From Thalassobaculaceae bacterium (GTDB lineage Bacteria > Pseudomonadota > Alphaproteobacteria > Thalassobaculales > Thalassobaculaceae): 64,000 nt of DNA. Below are positions 5,520 through 14,493 of this stretch, piece by piece. The DNA lies in NCBI GenBank assembly GCA_965228875.1, contig OZ245843.1, positions 3,640,616 through 3,704,615 on the forward strand, in the 5' to 3' direction. Position 1 is the first letter of the stretch. Each line of letters begins with the position of its first letter. The notes below the pieces were generated by a model. It made no database searches. It saw nothing but the letters and a program-made list of their open reading frames with translations, and was not told where the DNA came from. The position numbers were made by a program, and so were the translations under genes.

Positions 5520-5932
5520 GCCGCGCCGATCCAGGCGGCCGCGTCGTCGAAATCCATGAAGATGCGGAATGTCGTGCCCGGATAGTCGAAGGCGACGATC
5601 CTGGCGACCTTGGCGAGCCAGCCGTCACCGACCACGACGGCGACCTGACTACCGCCGTCCCGGCCGCCGGCGAAGCCGCGCCACTGCCGCGCCACGTCCC
5701 TCAGCCCCCTCCAGCTGTACTCGCCCTCGTTGTTCACATCGCGGGCGTCGACCAGAGTCGAGAACGTCACGACTTCCGGGTGGCGTTCCCACATGCGCGG
5801 CAGGCCGCTGGACAGATCCTCGTCGGTGACGGGGCCGGACACCCGGATCGTCAGAACCCGGCGATCGCGGTCCACCTTCCAGGTGATCCGTCCCCCCGTC
5901 ACCTCCCCGAGCGCGAATCCGTCCATCCTCAT
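5516..5932 (-). CDS. STAS/SEC14 (SpoIIAA-like) protein
   Basis: 138 aa with VAVV strand and FRIFMDFDDAAAWI C-terminus; 4-nt overlaps with gdh and MFS. Confidence 0.6.
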   Translation of the reverse strand: MRMDGFALGEVTGGRITWKVDRDRRVLTIRVSGPVTDEDLSSGLPRMWERHPEVVTFSTLVDARDVNNEGEYSWRGLRDVARQWRGFAGGRDGGSQVAVVVGDGWLAKVARIVAFDYPGTTFRIFMDFDDAAAWIGAA

Positions 5933-8900
5933 CGCGACAGCAGCGTCCGCATCTGTCCGTTGGCGACGGCGAGCATGGCCAGGTCGACGCCGTCGGCGCC
6001 GCGGATGTCGTCGAGCAGGCGGGCGGTGCGCGCCACATCGTCGGCCCGGCCGGCGCTCCAGGCGGCGATCGCCGCCTCGGTGTCGTCGGCCTCCGCCTTC
6101 TTCCTGTCATCCTCCGGCTCGACATGGCCGAGCACGTTCTGGGCGAGCTGACCCTGATGCAGGTAGAAGTCGTCGACCAGGGCGTTCACGGCCTGCTTCT
6201 GCCAGTAGGTGTCGGCCGACAGCTCCAGCGCCCGGTCGCGCAGCCAATCCAGGGCGAAGCGCGAGCCGACCTCGAAATACACCTTCGCCACGGTCATCTC
6301 GTCGAGCTTGGCGGCGCCGGACAGCCGGACCACGTCGCAGGCGGCGGTCAGCGCCTCCAGCGAGGCGATCTGATGCGCCAGGTCGTGCGGCACGCCCTGC
6401 TCCTCGAGCTCGGCGCAGGTGCGCTCCAGGTCCTCGCGTTCGGTGCCGCCGATCACCTCGACCAGCCCGCCCTTGAGTACCGTGACGCCGGGCTCGAATT
6501 CGCTCACGTGGCTGGCGATGTCGAACGGCCGGCGGCCGTTGCGCAGGAACCAGACGGTCTTGCGCTCCACCAGACGCTGAATGTCCAGCATCATCCGGGT
6601 CTGCACCGCGGCGGGCACCGTGTTGTCCAGCGCCTCGATGGCGTCCCACAACTCCCGCAGTCCGAAGACGTCGCGCACGATGGTGTAGGCCCGGGCGATC
6701 TCCGCGGCGCTCGCGCCGGTCTGCTCGCTGAGCGTGTTGATGAAGGTGGCGCCGACCCGATTGATCATCGAGTTGGTCACCGTTGTCGCGATGATCTCGC
6801 GGCGCAGGCGGTGCGCGGCGATCGGTTCGGCGTACTTGCCCCGCACCCGTTCGGGGAAATAGCGCGCGAGATCGTCGGCCAGCGCCTCGTCGTCCGGCAG
6901 GTCGCTGGCCAGCAGATCGTCGTACAGCGCCATCTTCGCGTAGGCGAGCAGGACCGCCAGCTCCGGGCGGGTCAGCCCCCTGCCGTCCTGGACCCGGTCG
7001 CCCAGGGCCTCGTCATCGGGCAGGAACTCGATCCGCCGGTTCAGTCTGAGGTGCCCGCGCTCGAGCCCGCGCATCAGCCGGCTCTGGGCGTCGATCAGGC
7101 CGAGGCCCTGGTGCTCGGCGATGGTGAGCGCCTGGCTCTGGTCGTAGTTGTCCGCCAGCACCAATTCGGCGACCGCGTCGGTCATCTCCTCCAGCAGCCT
7201 GTCGCGCTGCTTCAGGGTCATGTCGCCGTCGGCGACGATCGACCCCAGCAGGATCTTGATGTTGACCTCGTGGTCGGAGCAGTCGACGCCGGCCGAATTG
7301 TCGATCGCGTCGGTGTTGAGGCGCACACCGCGCAGGGCGGCCTCGACCCGGCCGCGCTGGGTGACGCCGAGATTGGCGCCTTCGCCGATCACCTTGGCCC
7401 GCAGCTCGCGGGCGTCGATGCGGACGGGATCGTTGGCCCGGTCTCCGGCATCCGCATGGCTCTCCCGGTTGGACTTGATGTAGGTGCCGATTCCGCCGAA
7501 CCAGAGCAGGTCGACCTCGGCCCGCAGCAGGGCGCTGATCAGGTCGTTAGGGGTTACCGAATCCTCCTCGATGCCGAAGGCCTTCTTGATTTCCGGCGTC
7601 AGCTTGATCGACTTGGCCGAACGCTCGAACACGCCGCCGCCCTTGGAGATCAGCTTGGCGTCGTAGTCCGACCAGCTCGATCGCGGCAGTTCGAACAGGC
7701 GCTTACGCTCGGCGAAGCTGGCGGCCGCGTCGGGGTTGGGGTCGACGAAGATGTGCAGGTGATTGAACGCGCCGATCAGGCGGATGTGCTCCGAGAGCAG
7801 CATGCCGTTCCCGAACACGTCGCCCGACATGTCGCCGCAGCCGACGACCGAAAACGCCTCCGCCTGCGTGTTGCGGCCGATCTCGCGGAAGTGGCGCTTG
7901 ACGCTTTCCCAGGCGCCGCGCGCGGTGATGCCCATCTTCTTGTGGTCATAGCCGGCCGACCCGCCCGAGGCGAAGGCGTCATCCAGCCAGAAGCCGTAGT
8001 CCTGGGACACGCCGTTGGCAATGTCGGAGAAGGTCGCAGTACCCTTGTCGGCGGCGACGACCAGATAGGGATCGTCGTCGTCGTAGCGGACCACGTCGCG
8101 CGGCGGGATCACCTCCGTCCCGGCGATATTGTCGGTGATGTCCAGCATCCCGCGCATCAGCGTCTTGTAGCACTCGATGCCTTCGGCCTGGAATTCCTCG
8201 CGGGTGCCACCGACCGGCGGGCGCTTGACGACGAACCCGCCCTTGGACCCGACCGGGACGATGACCGCGTTCTTCACCTGCTGGGCCTTCATCAGGCCGA
8301 GGATCTCAGTGCGGAAGTCCTCGCGCCGGTCGGACCAGCGGATGCCGCCGCGCGCCACCTTGCCGCCGCGCAGGTGCACGGCCTCGACCCGCGGGCTGTA
8401 GACCCAGATCTCCACGTGCGGGCGCGGCAGCGGCAGCTCCTCCAGCTTCTGGCTGTCGAGCTTGAAGGAGATGTAGCTCTTCTCCCCGCCATCCTCCGCC
8501 GCCTGATAGAAATTGGTCCGCAGGGTGGAGCGGATCAGGTTGAGGAAACGGCGCAGGATCCGGTCCTGATCCAGGTTGGCGACATCGTCCAGCGCGGCCA
8601 GGATCTCGCCCTCCAGGGCGCCCACCGCCTTGTCCCGCTCCGAGCCAGCCGCCGGATCGAAGCGCGCGGCGAACAGCTTCACCAGCAGGCGCGCGATCGG
8701 CGCGTAGGCGAGCAGCGTCTCCTCCATGTAGTCCTGGGAGAAGGTGAAGGCCGCCTGGCGCAGATACTTGGCATAGGCCCGCACGACCGTGACCTCGCGC
8801 CAGGTCAGGCCAGCCGCCAGCACCAGGCCGTTGAAGCCGTCATTCTCCATGCGGCGGTCCCAGACCGCGGCGAAGGCCTCCTGGAACGGCGCCTTGATGG

Positions 8901-10815
8901 CGGCAAGGTCGCAGTCGGTGTCGGCGCGCAATCGCATCTCGAAATCGTGCAGCCAGACGTCATGGGCCATCGTCCCGCCGGAAATCTCGAACGGAACCTC
9001 CGCCATGACCCGCACGCCCATGTTCTCCAGCATCGGCATGACGTCGCTGAGCGGCACCGGCTCGCCGCCGTGGAACAGCTTCAGGTGGAGAACGTCGTCG
9101 TCGACGCCGATCGGCCGGAACAGGTTCATTCCGAGACGGCCGTCCCCCGCCCCCTGGCCACGGGCGATCTCCTCCATGCGCGCCATGTCGAAGATCGCGG
9201 CGTGGGCGGTGTAGGCCTCCTTGTAGCTGGTCGGGAAGGCCGGCCCGTAGCGTTGCAGCAGCATCTGCGCCGCCTCCTCGCCCTTGTCCTCGACCAGGGC
9301 GTCGTGCAGCTTGTCCGCCCAGCTCCGCCCGGCATCGATCAGCCGCTGCTCCAGGTCGTCGTTGTCGACCTCGGGGATCGCGCCGCGGGTGGTGGCGACG
9401 ATGAAGTGAAGCCGCGCCAGCACACTGTCCGACATCTGCGTGTAGAACGCCGTCACCTCGCCGTTCAGGGCGGTCGACAGGATCGTCTGGAAGCGCTGGC
9501 GGAGCTGGGTGTTGAAGTGGTCGCGCGGCACGAACACCAAGGCACTCACGAACCGCTCGAAGGCGTCTCGGCGCAGGAACAGCGCCGTCTTCTGACGCTC
9601 CTGAAGGTGCAGGATGCCGATCGAGATCTCGTAGAGCTCGTCCTCGCTGGCCTGGAACAGCTCGTCGCGCGGATAGGTCTCGAGGATATTGACCAGGGCC
9701 TTGCCGTCGTGGCTGGCCGGCCGGAACCCGGCGCGCTCGACGATCTTCTCCACCCGGCGCCGCAGCAGCGGGATCTCCTTGGGGCTCTGGTTGTAGGCGA
9801 CCGAGGTGAACAGACCGATGAAACGGTGCTCACCGGTGACCTTGCCGGACTTGTCGATCTTCTTGACGCTGATCGAGTCCAGCGGCACCGGGCGATGCAC
9901 GTTGGAGACCTTGTTCGCCTTCATGACCAGGAGCGGCGTCGGGTCGAGAAGGAACCCCTGGACCCGCTCCGGCAGGGTGCCGATCTCGCGCAGGCCGTCG
10001 AACACGCTGACATCGGGCGAGCGCAGGATGCCGAGCCCGCGGCCGTCGACCACCTCCATGCGCATCTTCTTGCCGCTGCCCGCGTAGTCGTACTGCCGGT
10101 AGCCGAGGAAAGTGAAGTGATTGTCCTCGATCCACCGCAGGAAGGCGCAGATCTCGGCCAGATCCGCCTTGCTCTGCCCTTTCGGCGGCGCGCTCTCGAG
10201 GGCGGCGATCACGTCGACCATGGACTGGCGCATCGCCCGCCAGTCCTCGACAGAGGCCCGGACGTCCTTGAGGACCTCGGCCAGGGTCGCCTCGATCTCC
10301 TCCAGCGCCTCTGACGAGGTCTGCTCCGACACCTGCAGGTGCATGAACGACTCGCCGATCGATCCGGCGGCGGACTCGTCGGCGCCCAGCAGGCCCGTGA
10401 CCGCCCCCTTGGCGTCGCGGGTGACGTGCAGGATCGGGTGGATCACCAGATGGACCGTCAGCCCCCGGCGGTTCAGCGCATGGGTCACCGAGTCGACGAG
10501 GAACGGCATATCGTCGTTGACGATCTCGATGACCGTGTGGGTCGACTGCCAGCCGACCTCCTCGAAACGCGGGTTGTAGGCGCGGATGCGCGCCTGCCCG
10601 GGCATGCGGTCGCGTCCGAAGGTCCACATGGCGATCGCCGCGCCGAACAGGTCCTCGACCTCCTCGTCGACCAGGTCGTGCGGCGCGACGTTCTCGAAGA
10701 ACTGACTGACGAAAATCTCCGCCGTCTCCGCCTTGGTTCCCTGCAATCGCTCGCGAACCAGGGCGCAGACCGCCTCGATCTTCTCGACCTTCAAGGTTTC
10801 GGTGCGACCGCGCAT
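5929..10815 (-). CDS. gdhB: Large NAD-specific glutamate dehydrogenase
   Basis: ~1630 aa; DDMPFLVDS, ARGGIRWSDRREDFRTE, VAADKGTATFSD, GDMSGDVFGNGM; start taken at ATG 10815. Confidence 0.96.
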   Translation of the reverse strand: MRGRTETLKVEKIEAVCALVRERLQGTKAETAEIFVSQFFENVAPHDLVDEEVEDLFGAAIAMWTFGRDRMPGQARIRAYNPRFEEVGWQSTHTVIEIVNDDMPFLVDSVTHALNRRGLTVHLVIHPILHVTRDAKGAVTGLLGADESAAGSIGESFMHLQVSEQTSSEALEEIEATLAEVLKDVRASVEDWRAMRQSMVDVIAALESAPPKGQSKADLAEICAFLRWIEDNHFTFLGYRQYDYAGSGKKMRMEVVDGRGLGILRSPDVSVFDGLREIGTLPERVQGFLLDPTPLLVMKANKVSNVHRPVPLDSISVKKIDKSGKVTGEHRFIGLFTSVAYNQSPKEIPLLRRRVEKIVERAGFRPASHDGKALVNILETYPRDELFQASEDELYEISIGILHLQERQKTALFLRRDAFERFVSALVFVPRDHFNTQLRQRFQTILSTALNGEVTAFYTQMSDSVLARLHFIVATTRGAIPEVDNDDLEQRLIDAGRSWADKLHDALVEDKGEEAAQMLLQRYGPAFPTSYKEAYTAHAAIFDMARMEEIARGQGAGDGRLGMNLFRPIGVDDDVLHLKLFHGGEPVPLSDVMPMLENMGVRVMAEVPFEISGGTMAHDVWLHDFEMRLRADTDCDLAAIKAPFQEAFAAVWDRRMENDGFNGLVLAAGLTWREVTVVRAYAKYLRQAAFTFSQDYMEETLLAYAPIARLLVKLFAARFDPAAGSERDKAVGALEGEILAALDDVANLDQDRILRRFLNLIRSTLRTNFYQAAEDGGEKSYISFKLDSQKLEELPLPRPHVEIWVYSPRVEAVHLRGGKVARGGIRWSDRREDFRTEILGLMKAQQVKNAVIVPVGSKGGFVVKRPPVGGTREEFQAEGIECYKTLMRGMLDITDNIAGTEVIPPRDVVRYDDDDPYLVVAADKGTATFSDIANGVSQDYGFWLDDAFASGGSAGYDHKKMGITARGAWESVKRHFREIGRNTQAEAFSVVGCGDMSGDVFGNGMLLSEHIRLIGAFNHLHIFVDPNPDAAASFAERKRLFELPRSSWSDYDAKLISKGGGVFERSAKSIKLTPEIKKAFGIEEDSVTPNDLISALLRAEVDLLWFGGIGTYIKSNRESHADAGDRANDPVRIDARELRAKVIGEGANLGVTQRGRVEAALRGVRLNTDAIDNSAGVDCSDHEVNIKILLGSIVADGDMTLKQRDRLLEEMTDAVAELVLADNYDQSQALTIAEHQGLGLIDAQSRLMRGLERGHLRLNRRIEFLPDDEALGDRVQDGRGLTRPELAVLLAYAKMALYDDLLASDLPDDEALADDLARYFPERVRGKYAEPIAAHRLRREIIATTVTNSMINRVGATFINTLSEQTGASAAEIARAYTIVRDVFGLRELWDAIEALDNTVPAAVQTRMMLDIQRLVERKTVWFLRNGRRPFDIASHVSEFEPGVTVLKGGLVEVIGGTEREDLERTCAELEEQGVPHDLAHQIASLEALTAACDVVRLSGAAKLDEMTVAKVYFEVGSRFALDWLRDRALELSADTYWQKQAVNALVDDFYLHQGQLAQNVLGHVEPEDDRKKAEADDTEAAIAAWSAGRADDVARTARLLDDIRGADGVDLAMLAVANGQMRTLLSR

Positions 10816-11089
10816 GTCGTTGACCCCCCATGCCATCGCCCCGCGCCGCTGGCCGGCGCGTTCCATGGGCGAAAGCGTAACAGATGGGCGGAACCTGCGG
10901 AAACAATTCAGATTTTAAGAGTTCAAGACGATCCGCCGCGACCGGAGAAACGACGACCGAAGGGCACGGGCCGGACCGGCGGCGGCGGGGGCCGGTCGCA
11001 GCCCGTTCTGGGCGAGGAATTCGTCACTCATTACACCCTATTTTGTCGTGTACTATGCATTTACCACAAAATATAGGAGGCAAAATTGC

Positions 11090-11104
11090 ATAATTTCGCG
11101 TTAA
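11090..11104. promoter_or_regulatory. CtrA-box-like site (ATAA-N7-TTAA)
   Basis: ATAAtttcgcgTTAA, one mismatch to TTAA-N7-TTAA, in AT-rich DNA 60 nt upstream of the acyltransferase-like gene. Confidence 0.35.
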
Positions 11105-11163
11105 AGGCGTTGCATTCTCCGCGCCAGGATCCGGCGACCGCCGCCCCGTCCAGGGTCGATCTG

Positions 11164-11907
11164 ATGACCGACTATCTGGAGGCGACCTTCGCGATGCTGG
11201 CACGGGAAGGCGTGTTGGCACGGATGTCCCTCGGCCTGGAGGACTGGCTGGCGGAGATCAGGGACGCGCCCGGCTCGGTCGGAGTCAACCCGACCTTCGA
11301 CTCCTCGATCCAGAGGATCGATCCGGCCGACAGTTTCGCCATCATCCTGTCCGTCGACGGACGGACCGCCGCGCTCATGGCCTGCCGGCGGTTCCGGACC
11401 GACAGCTATTACGACCTCGTGAGCAGCGGCCGCGTCTGGTACGCGGATCCGGAGTTCAGCCCGCTCCCGCTGCGTCAGTCGGGCGCCGGCCCGAGCGGCA
11501 CCGTCAGCCACACGGGCGGACTCTGGGTCCATCCGGACCACCGCGGCATCGGCCTCTCCTGGATCCTGCCGCGGATGATCGGCGCGACGGCGGTCGCGCT
11601 CTGGGGGATCGACTGGCACACCGGAATGGTGTTCGCGAAGCTGAACCAGACGCAGATCTCGCAGAAGAACTACGGCTCGACCGACAACCGGGTGCTAATC
11701 GAGGGCTACTTTCCGCCCACCGGCCGCATCGAGAGGATTTTCAGCAACGAGACGCCGGTCGCCGACATCGTGGAACGCACCCGCAGGGACCTGGTCCAGA
11801 TTCGGGGTAACCGAAACCAGAAGGTGCGTGACCTTGCCCCGATCGCCAACAAGCGGGCAGATCAGGCGCCGGTACTGCCGCATGCGTCCAGAAAAGAAGC
11901 CGTGTAG
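11164..11907 (+). CDS. Hypothetical GNAT/LuxI-fold acyltransferase-like protein
   Basis: GGLWVHPDHRGIGLSWIL matches GNAT motif A (V.P..RG.G); high-GC3 codons; start at ATG 11164 (ORF open from 11086). Confidence 0.6.
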   Translation: MTDYLEATFAMLAREGVLARMSLGLEDWLAEIRDAPGSVGVNPTFDSSIQRIDPADSFAIILSVDGRTAALMACRRFRTDSYYDLVSSGRVWYADPEFSPLPLRQSGAGPSGTVSHTGGLWVHPDHRGIGLSWILPRMIGATAVALWGIDWHTGMVFAKLNQTQISQKNYGSTDNRVLIEGYFPPTGRIERIFSNETPVADIVERTRRDLVQIRGNRNQKVRDLAPIANKRADQAPVLPHASRKEAV

Positions 11908-12300
11908 GAGCGACAGACTGGAGGTCCTGTCCCGCTTGGCCCGATGATAGTCGGCATAGGCCAGTTCGCTCATCACGCGGGTGCGGCCATCGCGCAGACA
12001 CATGCCTTCGTAGGACGCCCCATCCTCCAGGCCGACGCGCAGGCCGTACGTGACGAAGGAATAGTCGCCCGGATCCTCGGCCGAGACGTTCAGCACATGC
12101 GTCCGGCCGAGCTGTCCGGCGGCGAACACGGCGTCCACGCCGATATCGTCGACATGCGGAAGCGATGCTGTCGCCCGGGCGCCGAGATACCGATGCAGCC
12201 TGATCAGCCCGTTGTCGATGCCGGCGATGAATCCGTCCGGCTGACAGTACCGGACATGCAGCGACTCGCCGGCGATCGACACGGTCCGATCTGCCCCCAC
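11695..12300 (-). CDS. Stand-alone PAS-like (PAS_5-type) protein
   Basis: DYSFVTYG...YEG...ADY...YRRLICPLVGDRGKVTHLLV pattern; GTG at 12300 one nt after the upstream TGA. Confidence 0.6.
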   Translation of the reverse strand: MGADRTVSIAGESLHVRYCQPDGFIAGIDNGLIRLHRYLGARATASLPHVDDIGVDAVFAAGQLGRTHVLNVSAEDPGDYSFVTYGLRVGLEDGASYEGMCLRDGRTRVMSELAYADYHRAKRDRTSSLSLLHGFFSGRMRQYRRLICPLVGDRGKVTHLLVSVTPNLDQVPAGAFHDVGDRRLVAENPLDAAGGRKVALD

Positions 12301-12301
12301 C

Positions 12302-12724
12302 TCACCACTCCGCCACGGTGATCGCCTGGACGGGAAGGCCATGCAGGTCGATCGGCAGGATCGCAGCGTTGACGCGATCCCGGTAGGGGTCCCGGACCAG
12401 ACACTGGAACGCCCGCGGCTGATCCGACACGCCCGCCGCGTGGGCGATGTCCCGAACGGCCGCGAACCGCGCCTCGGCGCCGCACAGGGTACGGCAGAGC
12501 GCGCCCCGATTCAGAAACCGGTCGCCGGCGAAATCGTAGAGGAACGTCGTCCGTCCGACGACCAGGGTGTTGGCGAGAACGTCGCGGAAACCGCTGCGAC
12601 TCTCCTCCAGCCACTCGATCATCATCTCCTGCATGCGGGGCGTCAGATAGGCGAACCGCATCGGCTCGACGACGACCCGTGGCGACGGCATCAGCGCGGC
12701 GATGTTGCTATTGGCGGGAATCAC
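12302..12724 (-). CDS. Hypothetical protein, possibly divergent PAS-like fold
   Basis: GAGGAG SD before GTG; W...FLYDFAG...AAILPI...ITV pattern parallels PAS_5 elements. Confidence 0.55.
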   Translation of the reverse strand: MIPANSNIAALMPSPRVVVEPMRFAYLTPRMQEMMIEWLEESRSGFRDVLANTLVVGRTTFLYDFAGDRFLNRGALCRTLCGAEARFAAVRDIAHAAGVSDQPRAFQCLVRDPYRDRVNAAILPIDLHGLPVQAITVAEW

Positions 12725-12757
12725 ACCAGACTCCTCAACTCGTGGTTAAGTCGTTGA

Positions 12758-13240
12758 TCATCCCCGATTGCGGTTCCCTGTCAATGACGTTCCGGCCGGT
12801 ATGCCGGTCGCGCTCGCCCGTTCCCGCGCCAGCCGCTGAGCGCGCTCGCGGATCGTCCGGGCCAGGCGCGGCGGATCCATGTCCTGGCCGAGAGAGGCCG
12901 CGATCTCGATCACGGTCTCCGCCGCCTGCTCCACCAGGGAGAAGTCGTCCAGGGCGGCGGTGTCGGGCCGGGCGGTGTCGGGCCGGGCGATGTCGGGGTC
13001 GGCGCCGGCGGAACCGGGCACGCCGAAGGCCAGCCAGGCCGGGTCGACATCGGCGACCTCCGCCAGGCGCGCGGCGTGGTGGAGCGAGATCTTGCTCTCG
13101 CCGTCGCGCCAGCGCGCCGGCGTGTCCTTGCTGACCTCAAGCGCGCGACCGACCGCGATGACCCCGCCGGCCTTCTCAATGGCCACCGCGATCCGGTCGC
13201 CGAGTTCCGGACTGAATCCAGGAGCAGTTGCTTTTTTCAT
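12758..13240 (-). CDS. XRE/CI-like HTH repressor
   Basis: GDRIAVAIEKAGG..AVGRALEVSKDTPARWRDG..ARLAEVADVDPAWLAFG; helical C-terminus, no S24 peptidase domain. Confidence 0.8.
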   Translation of the reverse strand: MKKATAPGFSPELGDRIAVAIEKAGGVIAVGRALEVSKDTPARWRDGESKISLHHAARLAEVADVDPAWLAFGVPGSAGADPDIARPDTARPDTAALDDFSLVEQAAETVIEIAASLGQDMDPPRLARTIRERAQRLARERASATGIPAGTSLTGNRNRG

Positions 13241-13274
13241 GCCCACCTTGCAACTTTGGCAGGAAAAGTACGGA

Positions 13275-13300
13275 TTGACGTCCAGATTTTTCTGGATCAA
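13275..13300. promoter_or_regulatory. Palindromic operator overlapping a TTGACG -35 hexamer
   Basis: TTGAcgTCCAGA-tttt-TCTGGA-TCAA between the divergent repressor and the 13388 ORF. Confidence 0.55.
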
Positions 13301-13387
13301 CCTTATCACGAACCCCAGATGGCAGGATAGAGCCGTTCGCCTGCCCTCCCGACCGCCGAGGTCACCGCTGACTGATGGACCCGAACG

Positions 13388-14194
13388 ATGCCCCCCATGG
13401 ATGACCTGCCCGGCGGTGACGCGCCCCGGTCCGGAGACCTGGAGTCGTCCGGGCCTCCGGCGCCGTCCGGGGTGGAGTCGATCGTCGACTTCGCGGAGTC
13501 GCTGGCATCGCTGCGGGGGGCGCCCGAGCCGTCCGGGTACATGCCCCAGCTTGCCGGCACCGCCTTCGCGGGACCGGACCGTATCGCCGCCGCGCCGGCG
13601 GTCGGCGGGAGCCTGCCGATGGGGATGACGGTACCCGCGGTTCAACTCGCCCACGCCCTCCAGCTGCTGCGCGAGCGGCGGGCCGGCCCGCCAAGCCAGG
13701 CTCCGGGCCGAAGGGGCTCCGCGCCCCGGCGGACCGGTGATGGCCCCTGCGACGGCGCGCCATCGGACACCGGGCACTCCGACGCCCGGGACGAGGCGAT
13801 CGAGGCGGCGGCTCGGCTGGTCTCCGATGCGCTCGCCGCGGTGACCGGAGCCGCCGGCCTCAGCGTGCCGATGTGGACGCTGGCGGTCGCTCCCCGGCCC
13901 GAAGTCGCCGATCCGGAGCTTGAATCCGTGTTCGTGGAGTTCGACACCGCGCTTGCCGCCTGGCGGGCGCTGCCCCCGGCGGCCGAGACCTGGCGGCCGC
14001 GGGCCGAGGTCGACCGCTATCTCGCGGCGGAGGAGGCGGTGCTCAACCTCGCCGACGCCCGTCCCGAAGTGCTGCGCCGGCAGGCCCGCCTGCTGCTGGA
14101 CCTGGCCGACGAGTTCGCCGACCAGGCCGGCCTCTCCGCCGCCAACGCGATCGCCAACGTCGCCCAGGGCCTGCTCGACCGCACGGAGCGCTGA
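13388..14194 (+). CDS. Hypothetical helical protein, phage-like
   Basis: 268-aa ORF divergent from the repressor; the C-terminal DPEL...AAWRA...AEEAVL...RRQARLL segment recalls alphaproteobacterial prophage early proteins; start uncertain. Confidence 0.55.
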   Translation: MPPMDDLPGGDAPRSGDLESSGPPAPSGVESIVDFAESLASLRGAPEPSGYMPQLAGTAFAGPDRIAAAPAVGGSLPMGMTVPAVQLAHALQLLRERRAGPPSQAPGRRGSAPRRTGDGPCDGAPSDTGHSDARDEAIEAAARLVSDALAAVTGAAGLSVPMWTLAVAPRPEVADPELESVFVEFDTALAAWRALPPAAETWRPRAEVDRYLAAEEAVLNLADARPEVLRRQARLLLDLADEFADQAGLSAANAIANVAQGLLDRTER

Positions 14195-14273
14195 GGGCGC
14201 ATCGCCGCCACAGCGGCTGACCGCCCGGAGGGCAGCCTCCGCACGCGCCGAAAACAGATTGTTCCGAGAAAAT

Positions 14274-14348
14274 TGGAGCGGGCGATGAGATTCGAACTCA
14301 CGACCCCAACCTTGGCAAGGTTGTGCTCTACCCCTGAGCTACGCCCGC
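14274..14348 (-). tRNA. tRNA-Gly(GCC)
   Basis: Reverse complement GCGGGCGTAGCTCAGGGGTAGAGCACAACCTTGCCAAGGTTGGGGTCGTGAGTTCGAATCTCATCGCCCGCTCCA, 75 nt with CCA. Confidence 0.98.
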
Positions 14349-14493
14349 GCTCCGTCAAGGCCGCGGATAATACCGGTGGATCGCGCGATTGCAAGAGCGT
14401 TTAGCGCCTTTTCGCACGGAATTTTTCTTTCGTCGGATACCCGCGAAAAATCCAGCGTTTTCCACGTCTTACCGAAGCGACCGCGGTCGCCGT

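Follow-up and report, generated by a model that had tools for sequence, protein, structure and literature searches.

What are four small genes with phage-like company doing between a housekeeping gene and a tRNA gene, and where did they come from? The question is raised by the DNA between gdh (NAD-glutamate dehydrogenase) and the gene for tRNA-Gly(GCC) in a Thalassobaculaceae bacterium (assembly GCA_965228875.1, contig OZ245843.1). The window analysed here is the whole stretch of 64,000 nucleotides (nt), positions 3,640,616 to 3,704,615 of that contig. Five open reading frames (ORFs), named A to E, sit between gdh and the tRNA gene; A to D form the cassette under study, which spans approximately 10,920 to 13,368 of the window. 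An earlier sequence-only reading had described a phage-derived islet inserted at the 3' end of the tRNA gene, in which an acyltransferase (A) makes a small acylated molecule sensed by two PAS-like proteins (B and C) that modulate a repressor (D). All five ORFs are present where that reading placed them, E and D included, the latter nested in a longer ORF. The reading preferred here, with a probability of about 0.55, is that the window holds an orphan copy of the immunity module from the left end of a Mu-like transposable phage, with an older gene pair of the Alphaproteobacteria at its core; in other words, a phage-derived, sensor-coupled acyltransferase placed under a repressor.

Whether the four genes form a unit can be judged from their recurrence. 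A search of 41 related genomes gave matches to A in 15, to B in 13 and to C in five of them, and 14 related loci were fetched, with gene calls based on the GC content at third codon positions (GC3). It should be kept in mind that the locus counts given here and below are samples of related genomes, and that the loci are not independent. A and B occur together in 13 of the 14 related loci (in one locus B escaped the query), and both are intact, convergent and overlapping by 99–222 nt in the window and in 11 loci. A C-sized ORF, often overlapping the start of B, lies directly upstream of B in 13 of the 14 loci (L043 left out), or 14 of 15 with the window, while D was detected in 7/14 (8/15 with the window). 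In the window C and B are translationally coupled; the 1-nt spacing reported earlier for these two co-oriented ORFs is exact, the TGA of C occupying 12302–12304 and the GTG of B 12298–12300. The arrangement is D-C-B facing A, or C-B facing A, in the window and the 14 loci, which bears out the earlier view of the genes as one unit, and the co-occurrence that had been proposed as a check is found, homologues recurring together in related genomes, Mu-like prophages among them.

According to the named records, the cassette occurs in Thalassobaculaceae and Thalassobaculum, with several copies per genome and identities of 30–45% among the copies; the genome of the window carries a second full cassette (A' to D') and six A-family genes. 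Copies approximately 99% identical to the window cassette are found in contigs of two marine/aquatic metagenome runs from two studies, and an index lists 20 holder runs from 11 studies for the cassette sequence. Two of the cassettes, L042 (G012:C48) and L039 (G012:C60), are decayed; one has an insertion sequence (IS) with a DDE transposase between A and B and a frameshift in A, and the other a premature TAA in A.

The origin of the unit is addressed by its placement elsewhere. Of the eight D-bearing loci, five are left ends of Mu-like prophages, the end that carries the repressor. Genes for Ner, ParB, a cII-like protein, MuA and MuB are divergent from D in L030, L031, L034 and L038, and those for Ner and ParB in L037. 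The second copy in the genome of the window is found within a complete Mu-like myovirus prophage of ~40 kb (C1, about 2,224,200–2,264,440; L034, L067, L068). The early side of this prophage, divergent from D', encodes Ner-like, ParB-like and cII-like proteins, a Mu transposase (phrog_310, E 2.9e-155), a MuB-like ATPase and a late activator (Mor-like); its later genes encode terminase, portal/head, sheath, tube, tape measure, baseplate, PAAR, fibre and methylase proteins. An 18-nt terminal inverted repeat, its copies ~40 kb apart, and transposase-site-like repeats all lie outside A', and therefore this copy of the cassette is inside the phage. Four further Mu-like loci were found with the early proteins of this prophage as queries. 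The two loci closest to the window proteins (D 51–52%, C 44–46%, A 41–45%) are also Mu-like left ends. The proposal that the unit is phage-derived accordingly agrees with both its closest relatives and the copy in its own genome.

D is the gene that ties the cassette to these phage ends. It matches phrog_2328, annotated 'transcriptional repressor' (E 2.6e-7), phrog_4 (E 1.6e-4) and, in the PDB, the helix-turn-helix (HTH) regulator 4ich_A (E 8.5e-6) and Cro proteins (E 0.1–0.2); its match to HTH_3 of Pfam stays below threshold (E 0.14), and the HTH matches in NCBIfam are likewise sub-threshold. No S24/LexA-type autocleavage domain was detected, as no peptidase family of Pfam matches the protein, which has only 160 residues with a C-terminal part that is helical by alignment. 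D is classed from these matches as a phage-type HTH repressor without a peptidase domain, forming its own small family, and the earlier description as an XRE repressor without S24 stands. Its linker is a pentapeptide repeat, PD[IT]AR, encoded by 15-nt tandem units at 12943–12995. One metagenome contig misses one such unit at 12956, so that the repeat number of D is polymorphic with the frame kept.

In the prophage homologues an operator separates D from the early lytic operon, which runs the opposite way; in the window the gene opposite is the core gene E. A block of ~50 nt of the D-E spacer is common to the D-Ner spacers of the Mu-like prophages of genomes G007 and G008, the two loci closest to the window proteins, the surrounding DNA being diverged. 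Inside this block lies a perfect 14-bp palindrome, CCAGATTTTTCTGG (13282–13295), identical (14/14) in the window, G007 and G008, and it is the best candidate for the operator. The palindromic operator predicted between D and the divergent ORF is thus represented by two elements, an imperfect palindrome (13234–13267) and this perfect one conserved in prophages. A second regulatory signal may lie within the 3' end of D, where TTGACA-16-GATGAT fits the promoter consensus (two sites found against 0.3 expected; a consensus match only); this sigma-70-like site might drive C and B alone.

How the cassette reached its present place can be read from seven congeners. In all seven, an HTH-fusion gene of 221 amino acids (aa), composed of a Cro/C1-type HTH and a C-terminal domain of ~150 aa, lies between E and gdh, and in the five loci reaching far enough a 267-aa A-like GNAT converges on this gene and overlaps it (5/5). 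The congener GNAT is related to the A family (hhalign probability 98%, E 2e-13). The cassette proteins share only about 20% identity with the congener versions (the GNATs ~21%) against 50–82% for the flanking proteins, which argues for replacement and not vertical descent. Homology between the window and the congeners breaks off near 10,920 towards gdh and sets in again near 13,368, a short way upstream of E; the two-gene cassette of ~1.75 kb has thus given way to a four-gene cassette of ~2.45 kb in an unchanged orientation.

E itself lies outside the exchanged segment. Its identity in the seven congeners is 42–56%, near full length in four of them, and its DNA is conserved together with the adjoining tRNA-Gly. 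No match was found in Pfam, NCBIfam or PHROGs, nor in PADLOC at E<=0.1. On this conservation E is judged a core gene and not phage-like, and the earlier label of a divergent phage-like ORF has to be given up. The E protein is Ala/Pro-rich, its gene is divergent from an HTH regulator gene in both versions of the cassette, and it may be under the control of that adjoining regulator.

What the cassette could do depends first on A. An AlphaFold2 (AF2) model based on an alignment with 23 relatives is of good quality (predicted local distance difference test score, pLDDT, 87.6; predicted template modelling score, pTM, 0.84). A Foldseek search of the PDB returned 232 chains at E<=1e-3, with a probability of 1.00 for many GNATs and GNATs in the top rows listed. 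A second structural search (VIA) gave Z scores of 10–12.3 and root-mean-square deviations of 2.4–3.9 over 127–165 residues, and its matches, among the top 50 listed, are overwhelmingly GNAT-type acyltransferases or GNAT-like domains. The model and both searches agree on a GNAT fold, which is confidently predicted, as had been suggested from the motif WVHPDHRGIG, present in A. Sequence libraries give a different picture: A itself matches no Pfam family at E<=1 and no NCBIfam model.

The active-site features of A include (i) the loop R153-G-I-G156-L-S158 (R-G-x-G-x-S), in which R153 and G156 are at least 90% conserved in the 23-sequence alignment, and (ii) Y196, which is invariant, with Y196-G197 kept across the family alignment. 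GNAT motif A, R/Q-x-x-G-x-G/A, forms the loop that binds the pyrophosphate of coenzyme A (CoA). We take the R-G-x-G-x-S loop to be this motif, although it ends in S where the motif has G/A, and Y196 to be the tyrosine of motif B. As the loop and the tyrosine are retained, A is probably an active, acyl-CoA-dependent N-acyltransferase. The family is large and unnamed. A profile search of 1.84 billion representative proteins, clustered at 50% identity, placed A in a family of more than 1200 clusters (1209 at E<=1e-3, 733 at E<=1e-10) with no Pfam model; among 34 representatives sampled from 150 listed, eight match Acetyltransf_1 at E<=0.01 and five reach the 20.7-bit cut-off.

B is the second constant component. 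Judged against its homologues, its most likely start is the GTG at 12300 (201 aa). The AF2 model, built from an alignment of 11 sequences, has a pLDDT of 79.1 and matches LOV/PAS domains in Foldseek with a probability of 1.00 (best E 3.1e-4). The B family also aligns with the PAS_5 proteins of its own genome (hhalign probability 98%, E 1.6e-13, 134 columns). Neither Pfam PAS_5 (PF07310, 22-bit cut-off) matched B, even at E<=10, nor any NCBIfam model. The profile-level kinship and the PAS fold, together with the lack of Pfam detection, lead to the assignment of B as a divergent single-domain protein of PAS_5 type, that is, a predicted stand-alone PAS protein distantly related to PAS_5. The earlier characterization as PAS_5-like without an output domain therefore survives at the level of fold and profile and fails at the level of Pfam. 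The last ~35 residues of B are a tail without conservation, and no fusion of B to other domains was seen among the longer proteins searched, which is weak evidence. The genome holds a large paralogous family of sensor-like PAS_5 proteins; a six-frame scan found 33 places over the Pfam cut-off, none at B or C, and ten PAS_5 ORFs extracted from it measure 157–267 aa.

A and B converge with a coding overlap of 213 nt. Part of it, 11802–11907, is antisense double coding for the last PAS beta-strands of B and the C-terminal helices of A, both confidently modelled. The conserved VRDLAP of A is the reverse complement of the conserved GKVTH of B, and one of these motifs may be conserved merely as a shadow of the motif on the other strand. 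In the near-identical metagenome copies the changes fall in third codon positions in 9/10 cases in B and 5/7 in A, among the differences listed (96 more exist), and both genes appear from this pattern to be under purifying selection.

The nature of C is less clear. Its family was assembled by position only (14 sequences, mean column identity 28%), and no significant match was found in Pfam, NCBIfam, PHROGs, PADLOC, PDB sequences or the Atlas. Comparisons of C with PAS_5 and B by hhalign gave E values of 0.21, 0.11 and 0.021; in a relaxed alignment, itself only at E 0.021, an N-terminal 'EW' helix and a C-terminal 'LP...G' strand of C fall into PAS_5 register. In G195, a genome from another family, the protein occupying the C position weakly matches both the N-terminus of C (E 0.0015) and the PAS core of B (E 8.5e-4). 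There is thus a hint of C as a second PAS protein, and the PAS-like label given to it in the sequence-only reading finds no significant support (E 0.02–0.2). A complex prediction for A, B and C, with C as the scored partner, gave 0.01 against a mark of 0.32, which speaks neither for nor against binding.

Pairs like A and B are also found beyond the family. Of 401 alphaproteobacterial genomes in a spread sample, 31 have A-family genes (23 of 307 genera), and a PAS_5 or B-like gene lies within 1.5 kb in 20 of 29 loci, 16 of the pairs being convergent, two tandem and two divergent. All 15 best-scoring A-family loci are paired with such a neighbour. In ten pairs examined closely, the partners pass the Pfam PAS_5 cut-off, and the pairs stand among ordinary genes of the chromosome with neither C nor D detected. 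The core of the unit therefore consists of A and a PAS_5 protein. The Thalassobaculaceae versions add C, and the phage-associated versions add D. In two genera of another family (L107, G190:C4; L112, G329:C86) the order is RNase HII, CcrM-type methylase, PAS_5 facing GNAT, and MutY, and the presence of the pair at this methylase-MutY place indicates stable vertical inheritance. Outside the Alphaproteobacteria, Streptomyces boetiae (L063, NZ_JAVREN010000003.1) has an A-family GNAT (33% identity, with an Acetyltransf_1 match) adjoining a gas-vesicle cluster and a BCCT transporter; no partner of PAS_5 type was evident there.

On the preferred reading, the parts would work together as follows. D would repress divergent promoters at the operator, which in the prophages serve the early lytic operon and here its own operon and perhaps E. 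C and B, which follow D in one operon, would be made with it. B would act by binding a partner, A or D or both, in the manner of the PAS_5 protein MopJ, and A would acylate a substrate using acyl-CoA, with an output tied to B. Because A and B overlap face to face, the two transcription units would interfere, giving a negative coupling of expression.

Several observations weigh against this reading. With the early proteins of the prophage in the same genome as queries (L034; tblastn, E<=1e-4), no Ner, ParB, cII-like protein, MuA or MuB was found in the window; the end repeats that mark the G007 and G008 prophages were not seen upstream of A, and the window copy has no recognisable Mu ends. As this copy has no Mu genes or ends, its phage origin rests on homology to the prophage copies. 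For the ancestor, the opposite direction, capture of a chromosomal cassette by phages, is possible. A has no match in GenBank phage records (tblastn), its query against IMG/VR gave ten pattern matches of which none was confirmed, and with the A query B is likewise unseen there. D was undetected in 7 of the 15 loci and unseen in the ten chromosomal pairs, and the repressor is therefore an add-on that A and B do not need. The partnership of D with B had drawn an argument from the congeners, in which the fusion of an HTH to a sensor-sized domain suggests that the two work together; the fusion protein is not significantly related to the B, D, C or PAS_5 profiles, its match to a 40-sequence PAS profile (E 0.0046, a single comparison) would make its C-terminal domain only weakly PAS-like, and this weakens that argument. 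In the Atlas the fusion protein matches HTH clusters, with one lead (0.78) to a partly PAS_5 cluster. As for expression, there was no RNA run among the 24 runs listed, and two guessed RNA runs gave short, partly diverged pieces.

The alternatives differ mainly in what they take A to be. The model proposed from the sequence alone, in which A makes a small acylated signal that B (and C) bind so as to modulate D, would be a chemical, non-SOS switch of a split LuxI/LuxR-like kind. A GNAT-fold enzyme does face a protein of ligand-binding fold with overlapping 3' ends, and such a convergent overlap is typical of LuxI/LuxR pairs of the esaI/esaR type; the cassette adjoins the repressor in Mu-like prophages, in the congeners the protein facing the GNAT joins an HTH to a ~150-aa domain, the copies diverge as strongly as do signal systems that diversify in specificity, and the genome yielded no LuxR-type receptor domain. 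A scan of this genome for the LuxI family also gave nothing, an uninformative result because its control matched in no genome. EsaI (1kzf) is among the Foldseek matches of A (rank 8, E 1.7e-5, TMq 0.37), but N-acetyltransferases, N-terminal acetyltransferases among them, score equally well or better, and EsaI is missing from the VIA top 50, a listing depth that leaves a lower-ranked match possible. A matches neither Autoind_synth (PF00765) nor any other Pfam model at E<=1, nor any LuxI- or FeeM-type model, and it retains the R-G-x-G-x-S loop, a typical mark of acyl-CoA N-acetyltransferases. The cassette is linked to no gene for a product, for export or for uptake, and the sole studied PAS_5 protein found, MopJ, acts through protein contacts with no known ligand. 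This model is accordingly considered unlikely. A bolder form of it would make the PAS_5-GNAT pair a signalling unit of Alphaproteobacteria (GNAT synthase and PAS_5 receptor) that Mu-like phages captured and wired to their repressor; lysogeny would then be set by an acylated signal, made by the phage itself or by the host, and not by DNA damage. The copies on chromosomes, that of the window among them, would be domesticated switches, and the orphan PAS_5 proteins, ~33 in each genome, would form a receptor family. It is offered as a speculation a shade less likely again. If, instead, A were a GNAT toxin (acetylating charged tRNA, for example, or another essential target) that B and/or C neutralise, or if B and/or C sensed infection, with D as the regulator, the cassette would be a defence or addiction module carried by prophages. 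Exclusion and defence genes such as lambda rexAB do lie downstream of a prophage repressor, as the cassette does; the copies are multiple, patchy and fast-diverging, with a module GC3 below that of the neighbours in several loci, one copy is IS-disrupted and another has a stop codon in A, and the GNAT 'bacterial toxin' 7byy_A is among the fold matches of A (Z 11.0). Of 11 proteins tested against PADLOC, however, ten (A–E, A'–D' and the G009 GNAT) match no model at E<=0.1, and the HTH-fusion protein of G009 has two weak HTH-only matches (E 0.018 and 0.037). A, at 273 aa, is convergent with its putative antidote and not co-transcribed with it, there is no DUF1778 or ribbon-helix-helix (RHH) partner, and in other families the two genes stand stably beside housekeeping genes, unlike mobile defence islands, which makes such a role distinctly improbable.

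Two further explanations concern the origin of the locus and not the product of A. The cassette could be an ordinary chromosomal pair of regulator and enzyme, with no phage-related role here, in which an HTH protein with a PAS helper controls a detoxifying or metabolic N-acetyltransferase and the prophage copies are passengers. It is in favour of this that a regulator and an A-like GNAT occupy the gdh-E site in every congener checked, that A-PAS_5 pairs stand in housekeeping contexts of other families, and that the window copy has a native-like GC3 and ~99% identical metagenome counterparts. All four window proteins and the operator block nonetheless have their closest relatives in prophage immunity ends, D matches phage repressor families, and the ~20% identity to the congener versions beside flanks of 50–82% points to replacement; we regard this explanation as improbable, slightly more so than a defence role. 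The remaining one, a genomic islet integrated site-specifically at the tRNA-Gly 3' end, draws on the closeness of the cassette to the tRNA and on the variable gdh-E content. The variable DNA ends at ~13,368, where congener homology resumes, about 900 nt short of the tRNA gene, and this part of the sequence-only reading is therefore withdrawn. Since E is core and lies between cassette and tRNA, integration directed by the tRNA finds no support. The repeats listed for 10850–14420 include none of the tRNA 3' end (an integrase was not searched by family in the window), and the related phages are transposable and Mu-like, with MuA and MuB; to our knowledge, transposable Mu-like phages do not use tRNA attachment sites. 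Such an islet is essentially excluded.

Returning to the orphan Mu-like immunity module, its parts (repressor, PAS protein, GNAT) are of known kinds, and their combination and placement are undescribed in the literature searched. No publication on a PAS_5-GNAT pair or on such genes in a Mu-like immunity region was found in that search, most subscription journals and supplements lying outside it. In phage Mu the immunity region has the repressor c facing ner-A-B. The cassette resembles such a left end in that D takes the place of the repressor, with an operator-bearing spacer and no LexA/S24-type domain, and differs in that C, B and A are inserted between the repressor and the phage end, the D family is its own, and the remainder of the phage is missing from the window copy, either through loss or because it was never there. 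The resemblance to LuxI/LuxR systems of the esaI/esaR type lies in a GNAT gene facing a gene of small-ligand-binding fold with a 3' overlap, and in the congeners' joining of an HTH and a sensor-sized domain in one protein. In contrast to these systems, the proteins belong to neither Autoind_synth nor Autoind_bind, A has a CoA-type loop, the candidate for ligand binding is PAS_5-like, and the HTH is separate and of phage type.

AcuA with AcuB forms a sensor-coupled protein acetyltransferase, and the cAMP-regulated Rv0998 (PDB 4avb) stands at rank 25 in the Foldseek search with A. Both resemble the cassette in having a GNAT enzyme joined to a small-molecule-sensing domain or protein; here, however, the sensor is a separate protein of PAS_5 type encoded on the opposite strand, and no gene for a target protein or deacetylase is linked. 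TacT, AtaT and KacT are the GNAT toxins of type II toxin-antitoxin systems. The likeness to them consists of the GNAT fold, the mobile elements and the several copies per genome, whereas A is ~100 aa longer, has no co-transcribed small RHH/DUF1778 antitoxin and matches no defence model. Closest to B is MopJ of Caulobacter crescentus, a 165-aa single-domain PAS_5 protein that, according to the main text of the paper on it, binds the kinase DivJ (PMC4432633); that main text mentions no acetyltransferase or GNAT, and neither of the flanking tags CCNA_00998 and CCNA_01000. B is similarly a single PAS_5-type domain of ~180–200 aa without an output domain. It differs from MopJ in lying under the Pfam PAS_5 threshold as profile-level kin, in being paired with a GNAT and, here, a repressor, and in that no link to a kinase is seen.

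PAS_5 (formerly DUF1457) is a large alphaproteobacterial family with a single studied member found, MopJ, and the conserved face-to-face pairing provides both it and the A-type GNAT family with a testable functional partner. Beside a Mu-like repressor, the pair is a candidate route by which transposable phages without a cleavable repressor could sense the state of the host. One chromosomal site holding the two-gene or the four-gene version in sister species amounts to a natural experiment. If A did make a signal, the cassette would be a new phage-linked communication system; otherwise it would be a new sensor-coupled acyltransferase module.

The features of the locus are collected in Table 1. 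The region is of high GC content (about 0.61–0.77), and the tRNA-Gly is the only tRNA gene of the window. ORFs A–E carry the GC3 bias of coding sequence in this genome (A 0.865, B 0.75, C 0.858, D 0.845, E 0.888; gdh 0.928), the other frames and strands being without this pattern. A sequence AGGAGG (11075–11080) precedes the TTG start of A by five nt.

Table 1. Features of the gdh to tRNA-Gly interval (window positions)
Feature	Position	Strand or remark
gdh (NAD-glutamate dehydrogenase)	5929–10866	-
Left boundary of the variable cassette and DNA upstream of A	10920–11085	Congener similarity gone beyond about 10,912–10,925
A, 273 aa, predicted GNAT fold	11086–11907	+
Convergent 3' overlap of A and B, 213 nt	11695–11907	Both strands
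B, 201 aa, predicted stand-alone PAS protein	11695–12300 (open frame to 12342)	-
C, 140 aa	12302–12724	-
Sigma-70-like promoter match, inside the 3' end of D, upstream of C	12757–12784	-
D, 160 aa, predicted phage-type HTH repressor; ATG-initiated part of the open frame 12758–13777	12758–13240	-
Imperfect palindrome over the start codon of D	13234–13267	20-nt arms, 80% complementary
Conserved candidate operator/promoter block	13268–13316	Common to the window and the G007/G008 prophages
E, 268 aa, predicted conserved core gene outside the cassette	13388–14194	+
tRNA-Gly(GCC), a neighbour, not an attachment site	14274–14348	-

Two minor observations concern the edges of the cassette and of its prophage relatives. 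The 12-mer GAACCTGCGGAA (10891–10902) was considered as a relic Mu end and rejected, as it sits in DNA that can be aligned with the congeners (9/12 match there); its presence is taken to be coincidental. It has four copies in the 5-Mb genome, two in the left-end repeats of the prophage, one upstream of gdh and one at 1,913,518; the copy in the window has the same orientation relative to A as in the prophage. Beyond the left ends of the G007 and G008 prophages, ~1.4 kb away (L030:8919–9704 and L031, about 9087–9464), there is a distantly related A-like GNAT paralogue, and such neighbouring phage and resident GNATs might favour recombination between cassettes.

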